DNA of 64,000 bases, taken from contig CAZYSP010000004.1 of assembly GCA_964650285.1 (NCBI GenBank), forward strand, positions 354-64,353, given 5' to 3'. The stretch is from an uncultured Methanosarcinales archaeon (GTDB lineage: Archaea; Nanobdellota; Nanobdellia; Woesearchaeales; GW2011-AR4). This document shows, piece after piece, positions 901 to 17,746 of this stretch. The notes below the pieces were generated by a model, which saw nothing but the letters and a program-made list of their open reading frames with translations, was not told the origin of the DNA and did not search any database. Numbering within the stretch: the first letter of the stretch is position 1; every line of letters begins with the position of its first letter. Made by a program: the position numbers and the translations under genes.

Positions 901-1337
901 ACCTCACTTAAAACAACCAATGTTCGAGTCCTGTCTACACCATCTAAATTTCTTAGGTATCCGTCAATAAGCTTGTTCAATTCATCAATATCCTTCACCC
1001 AGACCTTAATTATTGTATCTGTTTCACCAGTTATCACTGATACCTCTTCTATAGCCGGATTTAATTTTAGTTTCTTTGCCAGTTCATACTGTGTTTTTTT
1101 TATTTGTTTTAGCAGCTTATAATCCACAGTAATTAGAACATAGGCAGAAATTGCTTTGTCAATCTTCTTATTGTCCAAAACAACTGTATATTTTTTTATT
1201 ACCCCATCCTTCTCAAGTTTTTTAATCCTATGATGGACAGTTGTTATTGGTATAAAGGTTTTCTTTGAAATCTGCTGAGTGGATAATTTACTGTTTTCTT
1301 TCAAAACATCAAGTATTCGTTCATCTTTTTCGTCCAT
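897..1337 (-). CDS. Lrp/AsnC family transcriptional regulator
   Basis: N-terminal HTH (ILDVLKENSKLS...TTVHHRIKKLEKDGVI) plus C-terminal RAM domain (ITGETD...RTRTLVVL). Confidence 0.93.
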   Translation of the reverse strand: MDEKDERILDVLKENSKLSTQQISKKTFIPITTVHHRIKKLEKDGVIKKYTVVLDNKKIDKAISAYVLITVDYKLLKQIKKTQYELAKKLKLNPAIEEVSVITGETDTIIKVWVKDIDELNKLIDGYLRNLDGVDRTRTLVVLSEV

Positions 1338-1909: not shown

Positions 1910-2437
1910 ATGGAAGACGAAAAGGTAAAGCAGCTTGCTGAGACATTAAGGAAAAATGGGTTGGCCGCTTCTGAATACGAGGCAATTGAAAAGGCAAAGA
2001 GCATTCTGAATGTTAGGACGCAGAGGGAAGATGCTTCTCAGGAAGGAGATGTTGCAAAACATGACAGTGAAACAAAAAATGAGCAGGCAATGCCTAATCT
2101 TAACATAGATATAAAAAATCAAAATACTCCTTTAAATGAATTAATGAAGGAAATCAATGTCACACCAGAGCAGGTAGAAGCGCAGAAGCAGGAAAAGTTA
2201 GATGATATAGAAACAGAAGTCAATGAAATAAAAAAAGATATTAAACAGGCTGAAAAAAGCCCTGAAAAAACAGAACAGCTAAAAGAAGAGATTGCAAAGG
2301 TTAAGGACAACTTGGATAAGGTTGAGGAAGTTAAAGCAGAAAAAGAACCTCAAAACAAGCAACAAGCAGAGCAGGATGATATGTTTAAGGAAGAGAAAAA
2401 GATTGATTTGACAAAAGTATTTAACCATAAGAAGTAG
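1910..2437 (+). CDS. Hypothetical charged coiled-coil protein
   Basis: 175-aa ORF, Glu/Lys-rich, TATA-like element upstream. Confidence 0.7.
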   Translation: MEDEKVKQLAETLRKNGLAASEYEAIEKAKSILNVRTQREDASQEGDVAKHDSETKNEQAMPNLNIDIKNQNTPLNELMKEINVTPEQVEAQKQEKLDDIETEVNEIKKDIKQAEKSPEKTEQLKEEIAKVKDNLDKVEEVKAEKEPQNKQQAEQDDMFKEEKKIDLTKVFNHKK

Positions 2438-2607
2438 TATTCTCAGTTAAAATAATTTAAGTTTATTATTTGCCAGCTCTTGTTGCATCTTTCATGCTTC
2501 TGACATAACCATATACATCCTGCAACATCTTTTTTTTATCATTAATATTTTTTGCTCATAAATCTGGGAGTGTTGTATAAGTTTATAAGATTTATGAAGA
2601 TATTCTA

Positions 2608-2844
2608 TTATTTCTCTTTAGCTTTATTTCCAATAACTTCATTCAATTTCTTCACTGCTTCCTCTACTTCCTTGTCACTCATACCATGCGTCTTAAATCC
2701 TGCTTCTAAACTCTCAAAACCAGCCACATGGCAACCAACACAATGAAGCCCAAAACCTGTTAAAGTTGGAACTACCTGCGGATATTTCTCTACAATTTCC
2801 CCTATTGTTGTATCTTTTGTAATTTTTTGTTGTTTTTGTTCCAT
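2608..2844 (-). CDS. DUF1858 / hybrid-cluster-protein-associated redox disulfide domain protein
   Basis: ITKDTTIGEIVEKYP...GLHCVGC...ESLEAG...HG motif; start moved to the ATG at 2844. Confidence 0.85.
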   Translation of the reverse strand: MEQKQQKITKDTTIGEIVEKYPQVVPTLTGFGLHCVGCHVAGFESLEAGFKTHGMSDKEVEEAVKKLNEVIGNKAKEK

Positions 2845-2959
2845 TGTAATCACTATTATCAACAATATTTAGAAGGACTGTTCATTATATAAATGTTTTT
2901 ATTGGGTGTTGACTGTATAGAGCTTTTGTGGTTTACTAATATCAAGAATAAGAATTTAT

Positions 2960-3709
2960 CTACTGAGATATATTGCTTGGCAAGTAAAGAGGGAGTAATT
3001 CTGCAAGAGTATGTATTGTTATGTCTCCCTTACCCAAGGGTGTTCCAATATCTTTCTTATCCGGATTATATAGGATAAAAGTGAGGTTTGGATTTTCCTC
3101 TTTCGCTCTTTGTGCTGATTCACAATCATTACGTGCATCACCAACATATACCATTATAGCATTCTCAGGCACCTTGAACTTTTCACGAATATGATATATG
3201 CCATCTGGAGCAGGTTTAGGTTTCTTTACATTATCACCAGTAAGTACATAGTCAATATTATCTTTTAGAACCTGATATTTTTCCAATACTTTTCTCGTAT
3301 ACCCTTTATCAGAAGAAGTAAAGATTGCTGTCTTAATCCCTGCTTTTTTTAATTCTGGCAAGATTTCCATAACACCTTCGTAAAGAGTGACATTACCTGC
3401 ATGTTCTTGCACATATCCTTGTTTGATGTTGGCAATCTTCTCGACTAATTCACTTTGATTTGGTTTATTTGAATTTTTTACTATAAGTTTAGCAAAACCT
3501 TCATGCGTGAGCCCTTTTTGTCCTTCTATAATCTCCTCAAGAGTTTTGTTCAAAGTAAGATTGTCTTCCTCTTTTGCTTGATTTATCGCCTTTCTGGCGC
3601 CCCCCTCATGCACCTTTGATCCATCGATTAATGTACCATCTAAATCAAAGATTACGAGGTAAGGCATACTTCCGTTTCCTGACAAATGGTCTTCTATCAT
3701 TGTCACCAC
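2960..3709 (-). CDS. HAD-superfamily hydrolase (phosphoglycolate phosphatase-like)
   Basis: Motif I DLDGT, motif III KPKPAP, motif IV YVGD...ND. Confidence 0.88.
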   Translation of the reverse strand: MVTMIEDHLSGNGSMPYLVIFDLDGTLIDGSKVHEGGARKAINQAKEEDNLTLNKTLEEIIEGQKGLTHEGFAKLIVKNSNKPNQSELVEKIANIKQGYVQEHAGNVTLYEGVMEILPELKKAGIKTAIFTSSDKGYTRKVLEKYQVLKDNIDYVLTGDNVKKPKPAPDGIYHIREKFKVPENAIMVYVGDARNDCESAQRAKEENPNLTFILYNPDKKDIGTPLGKGDITIHTLAELLPLYLPSNISQ

Positions 3710-14613: not shown

Positions 14614-15530
14614 TTTCCTAACAACTTCAATATTATTGCTTTCTGCATGTGCAGCTTGTTTTCTGCCTGATCAAAGACAATGCTTTGTTTGCCGTCAATT
14701 ACCTCTACAGTCTGCTCATAACCGCGCATAGCAGGCAGACAATTCATAAAAACAGCATCATTTTTTGCATTTGCCATTAATTCCTTATTTACCTGGTAAG
14801 GTTTGAATACCTTTACTCTTTCATCTTTCTGCTCTTTTGGGATATGATAACTCATCCACGAATCTGTATATACCATATCTGCATTAAGAGCAGCTTTTTT
14901 TGCATCATTTAATATTTCAACTTTACATCCAGATTTTTTTGAATTTTTTTCTGCAATTTTTACAATCCATGCTTGTGGTATATGTCCTTTAGGACAGCCC
15001 ACTGAAATATCCATGCCAACTGCTGAGCAACCCAAAAGCAATGAATGAGCTATATTGTTGTTACCGTCTCCAACAAAACAGAGTTTTAAACCACTAAGCT
15101 TCTTTTTTTTCTCATAAATTGTAAGCAAATCAGACAAAATCTGGCATGGATGGAATATATCTGTTAAGCCATTAATTACAGGAACTGTTGCATTATTTGC
15201 CAGCTCTTCTATATCTTCCTGTTTAAACAATCTTGCCATAATTATATCGCAATATCTGCTGGATGCCTTTGCTGTATCTGCTATTGATTCTTTTTCTCCT
15301 AATGGAGTATCTTTTGTTTCCATGAAAATTGCATGATTGCCTAACTGTGTCATCCCAACCTCAAAAGAAACCCTTGTCCTTAATGACGGTTTTTCAAATA
15401 TCATAAGCATTGTTTTGTTCTTTAAACTATCAGAATAATTTTCAGGATTCTTTTTTATTTTAGCTGCACAGCTAATTAAATCCAAAATACTTTCACTATT
15501 CCAGTCAATTAATGAAATTAAATGCATCAT
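14610..15530 (-). CDS. argF: Ornithine carbamoyltransferase
   Basis: FEKPSLRT, HPCQ, GDGNN, NCLP; located in the arg operon. Confidence 0.93.
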   Translation of the reverse strand: MMHLISLIDWNSESILDLISCAAKIKKNPENYSDSLKNKTMLMIFEKPSLRTRVSFEVGMTQLGNHAIFMETKDTPLGEKESIADTAKASSRYCDIIMARLFKQEDIEELANNATVPVINGLTDIFHPCQILSDLLTIYEKKKKLSGLKLCFVGDGNNNIAHSLLLGCSAVGMDISVGCPKGHIPQAWIVKIAEKNSKKSGCKVEILNDAKKAALNADMVYTDSWMSYHIPKEQKDERVKVFKPYQVNKELMANAKNDAVFMNCLPAMRGYEQTVEVIDGKQSIVFDQAENKLHMQKAIILKLLGK

Positions 15531-16705
15531 TTTTTTGATTTCTTTGCCGCTATTTTCTGCTGCAAACCATAAAACTTAATGAATGCTTCTGCTTCTTTGC
15601 CTTTCCATGCACCACATTGGGCATAGCTGCCAACTTTCTCATCTATTAACGAGTTTTTTGTTTTAATTTCAGATAAAAAAGCATTTTTATTACCTACTTT
15701 TATCTTTACTTTCCCGGATACAACTTTCTGATTTGCATCGTTAAATGCCTGGATATCTTTAATTAAAGGTTCGTAAAGCAATCCATTATAAGCAAGATCA
15801 GCCCATTCAATTTCAAGTACACCTTTTATTTTCTGCTGTTTTTTAGTAAGCACTGCTTTTTCCAGAGCTTTATGGGCATCAATCAACAGCATCAGACCTG
15901 GAGCCTCAAATGCCTGAATGCCTTTAATTCCTATTGTTTCATCTTCATAATAAATACCGCGGCCATATCCATGAGCTCCTGCTATCTTATTTAACTCAAT
16001 TAAAATATCTGAGCCATGCATCTTTTTGCCATTTAAAGCTGCAGGAGTTCCTTCTTGGAATTCAATTTCCATATACTCTGGATTTTTCTTTGTTACCTTT
16101 GTAATTTGCCACGCATCTTCTTTTGGCTCTTTTCCTTTATCGATTTCACTTCCGGATATTGTAACTCCGAAAATATTCGTGTTAATGGTGTATTTCTTTG
16201 CTTTCTTATCAACATTGAATCCCTTATCTTCCAGGTACTTTATTTCTTCAGGCCTTGTTATCATCAACTCTCTTATCGGAGCTATTATTTTAAGCTTAGA
16301 ATTTAACGTGTTTATTGTAACATCAATCCTAACCTGGTCGTTGCCTGCTCCAGTACATCCATGTGCAACAAGTTTGGTATTTTCCTTTTTTGCTATTTTT
16401 ATAAGATATTTTGCAATCGTGTAACGGTCAGCACACATATTTGGATAAATTCCCTGGTACAATGCATTGGCCTTGATTAAATTAGATATAATCTCATCAA
16501 AAATTTCCTTCTTAGCATTAATACTAATGTGTTTTATAGCTCCAAGTTCTTTGCTTTTTGCTTCAATCTCCTTTAGCTCTTTGCTACTCAAGCCGCCAGT
16601 ATCAATTGTAGCTGTTACTACATCAAAGCCCTTTTCCTTTAAGTAAAGGACACAAAAACTTGTATCAAGGCCTCCTGAAAACGCCAAAATAACTTTTTGT
16701 TTCAT
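15527..16705 (-). CDS. argG: Argininosuccinate synthase
   Basis: AFSGGLDTS, HGCTGAGNDQ, EAPG. Confidence 0.96.
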   Translation of the reverse strand: MKQKVILAFSGGLDTSFCVLYLKEKGFDVVTATIDTGGLSSKELKEIEAKSKELGAIKHISINAKKEIFDEIISNLIKANALYQGIYPNMCADRYTIAKYLIKIAKKENTKLVAHGCTGAGNDQVRIDVTINTLNSKLKIIAPIRELMITRPEEIKYLEDKGFNVDKKAKKYTINTNIFGVTISGSEIDKGKEPKEDAWQITKVTKKNPEYMEIEFQEGTPAALNGKKMHGSDILIELNKIAGAHGYGRGIYYEDETIGIKGIQAFEAPGLMLLIDAHKALEKAVLTKKQQKIKGVLEIEWADLAYNGLLYEPLIKDIQAFNDANQKVVSGKVKIKVGNKNAFLSEIKTKNSLIDEKVGSYAQCGAWKGKEAEAFIKFYGLQQKIAAKKSKK

Positions 16706-16750
16706 AGGTCAGCTATAACAAGCCTTACTTTTTAAACCTGATGCCCTGTT

Positions 16751-16811
16751 TTAGACAAATTAGACAAAAATGTCTAATATTGGACATTAAAGGCAGAGGG
16801 ACGAATGTCCC
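16751..16811. promoter_or_regulatory. Cluster of GACA/TGTC half-site palindromes upstream of the arg operon promoter
   Basis: TTAGACA-AAAA-TGTCTAA (16760-16777), AATGTCTAATATTGGACATT (16769-16788), GGGAC-GAAT-GTCCC (16798-16811). Confidence 0.6.
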
Positions 16812-17113
16812 ATACAAAACCATATGTTTAATTTCTATTAAATATGTCCGAAACAAAACATTTAAATATAAGTTCTAAACAAATTACTATTGAGCGATAT
16901 ATCTTTTTGAATAGAGTACCGCAAAGACCAAGATATATACGCTCCATTTAAAAAATCTGGAGCCGCAAAACGCAGCTTCCAGTTTATATTACTCATGCAA
17001 AAGGATCTTTCAGAGTGGATTGATGTAAGCAGAGTAGAAATTGATCACAAAATAGTAAAAGAAATCAACAAATCAATTACTCTGGAATAAAATTTCAGTT
17101 GGGGGTTATATAA

Positions 17114-17746
17114 TTGGTTAACATAACAAAACTTACAGAGAGCTATATAGCAGAGCATCCTTTTGTAAAAGATTGCCTGAAAAAGGGCCTTATTAATTAT
17201 TCTTCTCTAACCAGGCAGATATGCCTTGATTTAAAACTGTCTAAAAAAAATTTTGATGCTGTTTTAATTGCATGCCGTCGTTTTTATAGAAAAATAAAAA
17301 CAGAAGCTACAATAGAAAAGAAAATTCTTAATATTCTGAAGAACAGCAAAATAGAAGTTAAAAATAAAATTAACGCTATAGTTTTGGAAAAGGACATTGT
17401 TTTTTCTAATTTGCTTGACATAGAAAAAGAGGCAAAAAAAATTCTGGAAACCTTCCATATTATTGAAGGCGCAACTGCAATAACAGTTATAACTTCCAAT
17501 GAACTTGCTAAAAAGGTAAAACAGGTTTTTAGGAATAAAATTATTAAAGAAAACACTAATTTGGTAGAGGTAATATTAAAAAGCCCAAAACAAATAGAAA
17601 CAACAGCAGGAATTGTTTCCTATATATATTCTTTGTTGGGAGAAAATGGCATAAATATAATCGAAACTTTAAGCTGCTGGACTGATACAATATTTCTAGT
17701 TGAAGAAAAAGACTTAAGCAGGATTATGGAGTTTTTAAGATTTTGA
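17114..17746 (+). CDS. ACT-domain protein with N-terminal helical/HTH-like region; candidate arginine regulator
   Basis: GLINYSSLTR N-terminus; C-terminal ACT-like TAGIVSYIYSLLGENGINIIETLSCWTD; divergent from argG. Confidence 0.75.
   Translation: MVNITKLTESYIAEHPFVKDCLKKGLINYSSLTRQICLDLKLSKKNFDAVLIACRRFYRKIKTEATIEKKILNILKNSKIEVKNKINAIVLEKDIVFSNLLDIEKEAKKILETFHIIEGATAITVITSNELAKKVKQVFRNKIIKENTNLVEVILKSPKQIETTAGIVSYIYSLLGENGINIIETLSCWTDTIFLVEEKDLSRIMEFLRF

Follow-up and report, generated by a model that had tools for sequence, protein, structure and literature searches.

A candidate autoregulated ACT-domain regulator divergent from the arginine biosynthesis operon of a Woesearchaeota-type archaeon

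The arginine operon and the divergent ACT-domain gene

The window analyzed here (the whole stretch of 64,000 nucleotides taken from contig CAZYSP010000004.1 of an uncultured archaeon) is AT-rich, with a GC content of about 32%, and comes from an assembly of 927 kb with a completeness of 90.6%; the nearest relatives of its proteins are labelled as Woesearchaeota or Nanoarchaeota metagenome-assembled genomes. According to the map of open reading frames (ORFs) and to Pfam, its minus strand carries an arginine operon in the order argG-argF-argH-argJ-argB-argD, with argG first, and a spacer of 408 nt separates argG from a divergent gene that codes for a 210-aa protein with two ACT domains. This protein, a candidate regulator with the arg operon as its putative target, and the array of palindromes lying between the two genes are the subject of this work. 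The divergent ACT-domain gene had already been singled out in a first-pass annotation of the sequence, and it is upheld here at 17114-17746 on the plus strand with a confidently modelled fold of two ACT units. The same annotation had taken the spacer for an operator with its promoter, a description that fits the shared control region of about 130 nt; the other 250 nt or so make up the regulator's own transcription unit, with a second promoter, a leader RNA and a small ORF. The main features of the region are the following:

15527-16705, minus strand: argG (Pfam Arginosuc_synth and Arginosuc_syn_C, E 1e-49; ORF map), start codon ATG at 16705
16729-16736, minus strand: TATA box of argG, TTTAAAAA, from sequence
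16754-16811, no strand assigned: distal operator array of five GACA/TGTC half-sites (16754-16809) forming overlapping palindromes
16760-16777: palindrome TTAGACA-AAAA-TGTCTAA
16771-16786: palindrome TGTCT-AATATT-GGACA
16798-16811: palindrome GGGAC-GAAT-GTCCC
16845-16868, plus strand: 24-nt signature of the regulator promoter, made up of half-site TGTCC, transcription factor B recognition element (BRE) AAAACA and TATA box TTTAAATA (16861-16868)
17101-17105, plus strand: GGGGG, resembling a Shine-Dalgarno sequence, 8 nt ahead of the regulator's TTG start codon
17114-17746, plus strand: candidate regulator, 210 aa (N-terminal domain 1-77, ACT units 79-138 and 143-207)

GACA half-sites start at 16754, 16763 and 16783, and TGTC half-sites at 16771, 16806 and 16845. 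Those of the array are located between 18 and 73 nt upstream of the TATA box of argG and make up three palindromes, in good agreement with the at least five half-sites in overlapping palindromes previously annotated about 15-75 nt upstream of that box. The box itself, formerly placed at 16731-16738, is present two bases further left, and the distance of about 27 nt between its center and the argG ATG indicates that the argG mRNA is probably leaderless. The array is the only place with at least five GACA/TGTC sites in 60 nt, in the window as well as in the entire assembly of 927 kb, and a candidate operator can be written as the 16-bp duplex TGTCTAATATTGGACA. The stretch 16805-16835, ATGTCCCATACAAAACCATATGTTTAATTT, resembles the promoter-proximal module at 16843-16870 and may represent a degenerate duplicated promoter-operator unit within the array. 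Elsewhere in the genome, the RACA-N4-TGTY sites outside ORFs have neither a likeness to this operator nor a link to arginine genes, and GACA-N4-TGTC occurs in 10 copies, against some 7 expected from a rough composition-based estimate. Since no comparable site was found elsewhere in the genome, the factor that recognizes the array appears to act locally.

Conservation of the putative operator and linkage to arginine genes

The comparison of gene neighborhoods covered 23 loci from species-representative genomes and 66 metagenome loci, all of them oriented alike. The metagenome loci were located by means of the 24-nt promoter signature, TGTCYNAAACAAAACATTTAAATA, which gave 66 exact matches in 241 million metagenome records; where the sequence around a match is long enough, the ACT gene almost always follows, which argues that the signature is specific to the regulator operon. 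In at least 10 related genomes the array is conserved in register, and the genomes can be aligned without a shift in register over the stretch that separates the two divergent TATA boxes, regardless of the arginine gene on its left. The palindrome RACA-N4-TGTY is present in 50 of 62 distinct upstream regions, with about one expected from shuffled sequences, and the 16-bp form TGTCY-N6-RGACA in 20 of the 62, with 0.01 expected. Conservation of the motif beside homologs, proposed as a check when the array was first annotated, is therefore borne out. RACA-N4-TGTY stays at the regulator's own BRE/TATA promoter whatever gene stands to the left, and a TTTTAAA-nCTnAYGCCC block is likewise kept at the left TATA box in relatives, whichever arginine gene is found there. 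Compact loci hold a single palindrome, some 12 nt from the regulator TATA box and 27 nt from the left one, and the locus in the window constitutes a long form with an extra array. In relatives, GTTGGGGG is kept ahead of the ACT gene or of a gene of the APH kinase family described below.

A divergent gene of the arginine pathway lies within 400 nt in 33 of 64 distinct loci, and in 8 further loci an arginine gene stands 0.7-3 kb away, so that linkage to a single pathway is clear though incomplete. The 33 partners comprise 11 argG genes of a second type, three argG genes of the type seen in the window, five argF, five argB or related amino-acid kinases (AAK), one argJ and eight acetyltransferases, the last being homologous to a protein that matches (51 bits) the Pfam NAT domain of N-acetylglutamate synthase (NAGS; PF04768). 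Such variation in the partner gene argues against a fixed protein-protein partner and in favor of control at the promoter. The linkage of homologs to amino-acid operons, on which the first-pass annotation had staked its proposal, is thus present in these 33 loci and extends to the paralogs considered below.

Within the same order, 27 of the 32 genomes with argH harbor a high-scoring ortholog of the regulator, compared to 23 of the 119 genomes in which argH was not detected (151 genomes in all). The unpublished genome G130 is among those counted, and the first figure becomes 26 of 31 if it is left out; the unpublished G119 was counted only among genomes with a paralog. As the genomes compared are related and not independent, the result represents an association and not a test.

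The two argG types, which are only 32% identical (15527-16705 in the window versus 2225-3439 of locus L007 and many other loci), share the same divergent slot, suggesting that the argG gene was replaced in place. Close relatives from the window's own family (loci L001, L003, L005 and L006 and genomes G015 and G141) have retained the regulator and its operator next to a lone NAGS-like acetyltransferase, and no argH was detected in their genomes. Downstream of the regulator, a convergent ribA gene is present in most compared loci, in what looks like plain synteny.

Domains, predicted structure and paralogs of the protein

A word-indexed search returned 831 close homologs of about 210 aa, and an exhaustive search 1084 representatives of clusters at 50% identity, of which 455 at E <= 1e-10. 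The Pfam family ACT_7 scores 25.8 bits on the window protein, just below its cut-off of 27 (E 9e-6), and is matched at E <= 0.01 by 36 of 43 relatives. An AlphaFold2 model built on the alignment of these 43 diverse members (predicted local distance difference test, pLDDT, 94.8) places helices at residues 4-13, 16-23 and 29-39 and a long helix at 44-76, followed by two ACT units. The first consists of strand 79-92, helix 97-109, strands 114-118 and 122-128 and helix 129-138, and the second of strand 143-156, helix 167-177, strands 184-188 and 191-197 and helix 198-207, so that the beta-alpha-beta-beta-alpha-beta fold of the ACT superfamily appears in the model twice in tandem. The pair resembles aspartokinase regulatory domains (Foldseek E 2e-8, template-modelling score about 0.48 over 150 columns), and a profile search matched aspartokinase 3l76 at E 1e-5; the sensor is of the aspartokinase-type ACT class. 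No full-length relative was matched among solved structures, only the ACT regions of aspartokinases.

The protein is predicted to form a homodimer, with an ipSAE interface score of 0.56 versus 0.00 for the best control, and so passes the mark of the tool, which is reached by 20 of 30 proteins whose solved structure is a pair of one chain and by 1 of 23 whose solved structure is a single chain. At least 87% of contacts are common to the runs, with a partner pLDDT of at least 82, and the interface takes in ACT strands and residues 16-35. This result may reflect likeness to ACT dimers, which are common among solved structures.

The N-terminal domain, which reaches a pLDDT of 92 when modelled alone, consists of three short helices and a long one, with no wing, and is basic (pI 9.75 here, with a median of 9.9 over the 43 members). 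In the alignment R34 and R56 are invariant and P16, L22, N28, S30, I36, A49 and A53 nearly so, with R34, R56, N28 and S30 located on or adjoining the third helix. The only family to which the domain can be related is DUF7523 (PF24367), which scores 21.2 bits against a cut-off of 27 on the window protein and covers 58 of its 158 model positions (6-63); 37 of the 43 members match it, with a best E of 7.5e-10. What is shared is the first 65 or so positions of the model, and the window protein is hence related to DUF7523 through its N-terminal domain only and not as a member over the full model, unlike a full-scoring protein of Haloferax volcanii. Among 14 control genomes only Haloferax was matched, and a literature search found no paper on DUF7523. 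The family WH_PARP12 gave a weak match (E 0.001), a shape search of the ESM Atlas with the N-terminal domain yielded no match, and the clusters brought up by a feature search of the Atlas were all either unnamed or DUF7523. The helix-turn-helix (HTH) for which the first-pass annotation had suggested a structure prediction could not be confirmed: the domain is helical and basic but has no significant match to a DNA-binding fold.

Members of the family, in one to five copies per genome, are present in 84 of the 151 genomes of the order. The second copy in the genome studied here (G000, contig C8, 38008-38643; L098:5994-6650, minus strand) codes for 218 aa with the same two weak Pfam matches, and is divergent from a lysine operon composed of dapB, dapA, lysA (diaminopimelate, DAP, decarboxylase), an aminotransferase, an aspartokinase and asd. 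A palindrome, TGTTATTATAATAACA, lies over its predicted transcription start. Paralogs in other genomes are divergent from dapB-dapA, from genes of the isopropylmalate/homocitrate-synthase type with aconitase-family genes, from genes for DAHP synthase and anthranilate synthase, from genes for an amino-acid kinase and a DAP-type decarboxylase and, in some cases, from genes without assigned function.

Three classes can be told apart by their third helices (NYSSLTRQI, YGNLAEQL and IRALAxY), and their motifs differ by class. In the class whose members begin with MVT(I/V)(S/A)H (here termed MVTISH), TGTTA-N6-TAACA is found in nine of ten paralogs between the gene's own TATA box and its start codon, covering the predicted start site; this is the geometry of a repressor and suggests that paralogs of the class are autorepressed. 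A third class has TTGACAAAT motifs on either side of its TATA box. The palindromes at the paralogs' own promoters differ along with the putative recognition helices, a pattern typical of families that bind DNA and regulate their own genes, and it is the paralogs that we find most persuasive. On the basis of gene order and motif comparison, this is a multi-paralog family of Woesearchaeota-type DPANN archaea with members paired to different amino-acid operons.

Proposed regulation, alternatives and relation to known systems

Taken together, these data make it reasonably likely, in our judgement, that the protein is an amino-acid-responsive, one-component DNA-binding regulator, dimerized through its ACT domains and dedicated to arginine, that regulates its own gene and controls the divergent arg promoter. 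Comparative evidence gives good support to a family of amino-acid-sensing regulators that control their own genes; that they bind DNA, which ligand they sense and in which direction they act are inferences. In the mechanism proposed, a homodimer or higher oligomer would form through the tandem ACT domains, and the basic N-terminal helical domains would bind the TGTC/GACA palindromes between the divergent promoters. Occupancy of the site next to the regulator's BRE/TATA would result in autoregulation, and occupancy of the array upstream of the argG TATA box in control of the arg operon. By analogy with ACT and RAM regulators, arginine or an intermediate of its pathway might bind at the ACT interfaces and alter the affinity for DNA, arginine being suggested as ligand by the gene neighborhood. 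The arg promoter would then be activated when the ligand is low, and the regulator would repress its own gene, although this combination is simply our preferred guess. Sites upstream of BRE/TATA are associated with activation, a rule that comes from Thermococcales and Sulfolobus regulators, and the location of the array upstream of the argG TATA box is in line with the activator originally envisaged. The best-conserved site, however, abuts or overlaps the regulator's own BRE, which means that the sign at argG is not readable from sequence, and the palindrome of the MVTISH class is repressor-like. As for the broader idea of an amino-acid-sensing regulator other than ArgR, it has strong support from the gene linkage and from the own-promoter palindromes, and no ArgR C-terminal domain was found in the 90.6%-complete genome, whereas an HTH could not be confirmed.

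Several observations weigh against this proposal. The genome-wide search gave no second site that would point to a regulon. No arginine gene was detected nearby in 22 of the 64 loci, though at least 8 of these 22 lie on contigs that end early; the ortholog is present in 23 genomes without a detected argH, and distant bacterial members (about 25% identity) have unrelated neighbors, one of them, in a Bacteroidota-like context, showing no amino-acid linkage. Residues 16-35, with part of the putative recognition helix, fall partly inside the predicted dimer interface. Finally, the N-terminal domain has no Foldseek match in the PDB at E <= 0.001, and its best VIA-align hit (Z 6.3) is a ribosomal protein, with homeodomain and winged-helix structures reaching only 4.4-4.9. 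Given this lack of a match to a DNA-binding fold, the target of the domain could be RNA, or no nucleic acid at all.

The regulator's own transcription unit holds further elements, which bear on the alternatives:

16892-16944, plus strand: R1, an RNA hairpin with a 13-bp helix, an inner 4-bp helix and an invariant GAGUACC loop
16957-16985 (stem 16957-16982), plus strand: terminator-like hairpin followed by TTT, from folding
16995-17090, plus strand: 31-aa ORF, MQKDLSEWIDVS..., with 35 distinct homologous peptides of 25-37 aa

The predicted transcription start, near 16891, falls together with the base pair that opens R1. With a covariance model trained on 12 sequences, R1 was recovered at 51 loci, which provide 36 distinct sequences, and at one place only in this genome. 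Pairing in the 13-bp helix reaches 99.6% over the 36 sequences, and 8 of the 13 pairs have changed in a compensatory manner, far above slid and shuffled controls, the alignment having been fitted to the model; the G-U pairs are compatible with the plus strand only. Rfam returned no family over the spacer, the best score for R1 being 19.8 bits against a threshold of 90 and all E values at least 0.34. The terminator-like stem changes in sequence between loci with its pairing retained, and is optional, being absent in L001 and L010. Homologs of the 31-aa ORF keep MQ(K/T)xLSx(W/Y)(I/M)D, and their variability is highest at third codon positions (0.37, versus 0.22 and 0.17), a substitution pattern of the coding type. 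Readings of R1 and the small ORF as a K-turn, C/D-box or H/ACA element or as a leader peptide were inspected by eye and did not fit; the ORF has just one Arg codon.

In about 20 of the 64 loci a gene of the APH/fructosamine-kinase family (some 300 aa, PF01636) is inserted downstream of this promoter and ahead of the ACT gene, whose start it often overlaps. The arrangement is seen in L009 (3070-3999), in L016-L020 and in about 20 metagenome loci (L034, L041 and L053 among them); most such loci are without a divergent arginine gene, which only 4 of 20 have, and the kinase is absent from the genome studied here. R1, the ORF and the kinase are all missing from many loci, and are therefore best viewed as accessory layers and not as obligatory partners. 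A small contig from a library labelled metatranscriptomic, but probably DNA, spans 16918-17140, and two RNA runs from a sample carrying the locus yielded nothing over it.

The presence at the 5' end of the transcript of a strongly covarying R1, followed by a terminator-like hairpin, raises the question of whether the protein acts on RNA, its N-terminal domain binding R1 or other RNAs to control termination or translation and the palindromes belonging to another factor. The structural neighbors of the domain point the same way, as the best of them include RNA-binding proteins, namely, besides the ribosomal protein (Z 6.3), the SRP54 M domain and helical domains of PNPase and GlnRS, but all Z scores for the domain are within the chance range of helical bundles. 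Moreover, R1 is optional, since in many loci a leader of some 20-30 nt is all that separates the promoter from the ACT gene, the lysine-type paralog of this genome has no R1, and the DNA palindrome is found in all forms of the locus, all of which makes action on RNA rather improbable. We also regard as unlikely, if marginally less so, that the protein is an allosteric or regulatory subunit, of the type of the aspartokinase beta or the acetolactate synthase small subunit, binding an enzyme or the co-encoded APH kinase. Its ACT pair is indeed most like aspartokinase regulatory domains and subunits, some databases label members as aspartate kinase, and the APH-family gene abuts or overlaps the start in those 20 or so loci. 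The gene, however, is divergent from the enzymes and not co-transcribed with them, the adjoining enzyme varies (argG, argF, argB, NAGS-like, argJ) with no single partner, this genome has no APH kinase and an aspartokinase with ACT domains of its own, and the conserved palindrome at the protein's own promoter would be left unexplained. A split aspartokinase was considered too and rejected, for the upstream gene of the fused operons is of the APH family and not an amino-acid kinase, and the aspartokinase of the genome is complete.

Another possibility is that the array serves as operator for a different factor, such as an Lrp/AsnC protein, with the ACT gene as a merely co-regulated neighbor. Lrp-type factors are known to bind arrays of imperfect, AT-rich palindromes and to regulate archaeal amino-acid operons, and the genome holds two or three genes of the type, one of them near the start of the window. 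The latter gene, at about 903-1115 (minus strand; G000:C4:1256-1468), has an AsnC_trans_reg match of 60 bits and lies some 16 kb from the arg operon. Yet no Lrp gene is linked to the locus, the palindrome tracks the promoter of the ACT gene and not the arginine genes, being present also beside left neighbors unrelated to arginine, and distinct palindromes for each paralog class are the usual signature of autoregulated factors. We consider this explanation improbable as well, and return to the proposed ACT-domain regulator acting at its own and the divergent promoter.

Several known systems offer points of comparison for such a regulator. The archaeal Lrp/AsnC proteins (also known as FFRP), e.g. 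LysM of Sulfolobus, combine a small N-terminal DNA-binding domain with a C-terminal, ACT-like RAM domain of beta-alpha-beta-beta-alpha-beta fold that binds amino acids; they are oligomeric, regulate their own genes, are often divergent from the biosynthetic operon under their control, and recognize series of imperfect palindromes located upstream of BRE/TATA. The proposed one-component design, the divergent placement and the palindrome array upstream of a TATA box are shared with them, but the window protein matches neither HTH_AsnC nor AsnC_trans_reg, it carries a tandem ACT pair of the aspartokinase type where they have a single RAM domain, its wingless four-helix N-terminal domain differs from theirs and lacks a significant structural match, and the Lrp genes of this genome are found elsewhere. 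With bacterial ArgR it shares only the proposed job, that is, arginine-responsive control of arg genes through promoter palindromes, with autoregulation. ArgR is a winged-helix hexamer, with no sequence or fold relation to the window protein, and ARG boxes are 18-bp AT-rich palindromes unlike TGTC/GACA; ArgR domains had no match in the protein, and Arg_repressor_C (PF02863), detected in 8 bacterial controls, was not found in the 90.6%-complete genome. The protein would hence be Lrp/AsnC-like in its working and ArgR-like in its job, yet it is a member of neither family.

The regulatory domain or beta subunit of aspartokinases (PDB 3c1m, 2dtj, 2zho) shares the tandem ACT fold of residues 79-207, and in those enzymes dimerization through the ACT sheets creates the amino-acid-binding sites; in contrast, the window protein lacks a kinase domain, its gene is not co-transcribed with one for such a kinase, and it is only 10-20% identical and has an extra basic helical domain of 77 aa. 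NikR resembles it in the proposed combination of a small DNA-binding module with an ACT-type sensor, but uses a ribbon-helix-helix (RHH) module and senses nickel. An archaeal ACT regulator has been predicted in silico before, as COG2150 ('predicted regulator of amino acid metabolism, contains ACT domain'); our comparison with it is by description only, and in the literature searched COG2150 appears only in gene lists, as a Euryarchaeota signature gene. The plan of a ligand-sensing domain joined to a DNA-binding one, in a divergent and autoregulated gene, is therefore a known one, with a putative DNA-binding module that is uncharacterized. To our knowledge, no archaeon is known to have a dedicated arginine regulator equivalent to ArgR, and a literature search found nothing on an archaeal arginine regulator of the ACT type.

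A wider reading, which we put forward only tentatively and think somewhat doubtful, is that DUF7523-ACT proteins constitute an unrecognized family of one-component sensors with a new DNA-binding domain, providing the main amino-acid feedback of DPANN archaea of the Woesearchaeota type, with one paralog and one palindrome per pathway (arginine, lysine, leucine-type and aromatic). DPANN archaea are usually portrayed as lacking amino-acid biosynthesis, let alone its regulation. The locus offers a testable candidate in this respect, with a 210-aa protein, a DNA target of about 130 bp and a short list of ligands, and the paralogs supply built-in controls of specificity, the lysine-type member having a different palindrome. 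Two further new elements, of interest in their own right, are the covarying R1 hairpin and the 31-aa ORF. If binding proves true, a role would be assigned to a DUF family, a DNA-binding module of a new kind, joined to ACT domains, would be defined, and regulons of uncultured archaea might become readable from sequence. Should the wider reading hold as well, the arginine member would be the first candidate for a dedicated arginine regulator in archaea, layered with a novel leader RNA, a 31-aa protein and, in certain lineages, an APH-type kinase.

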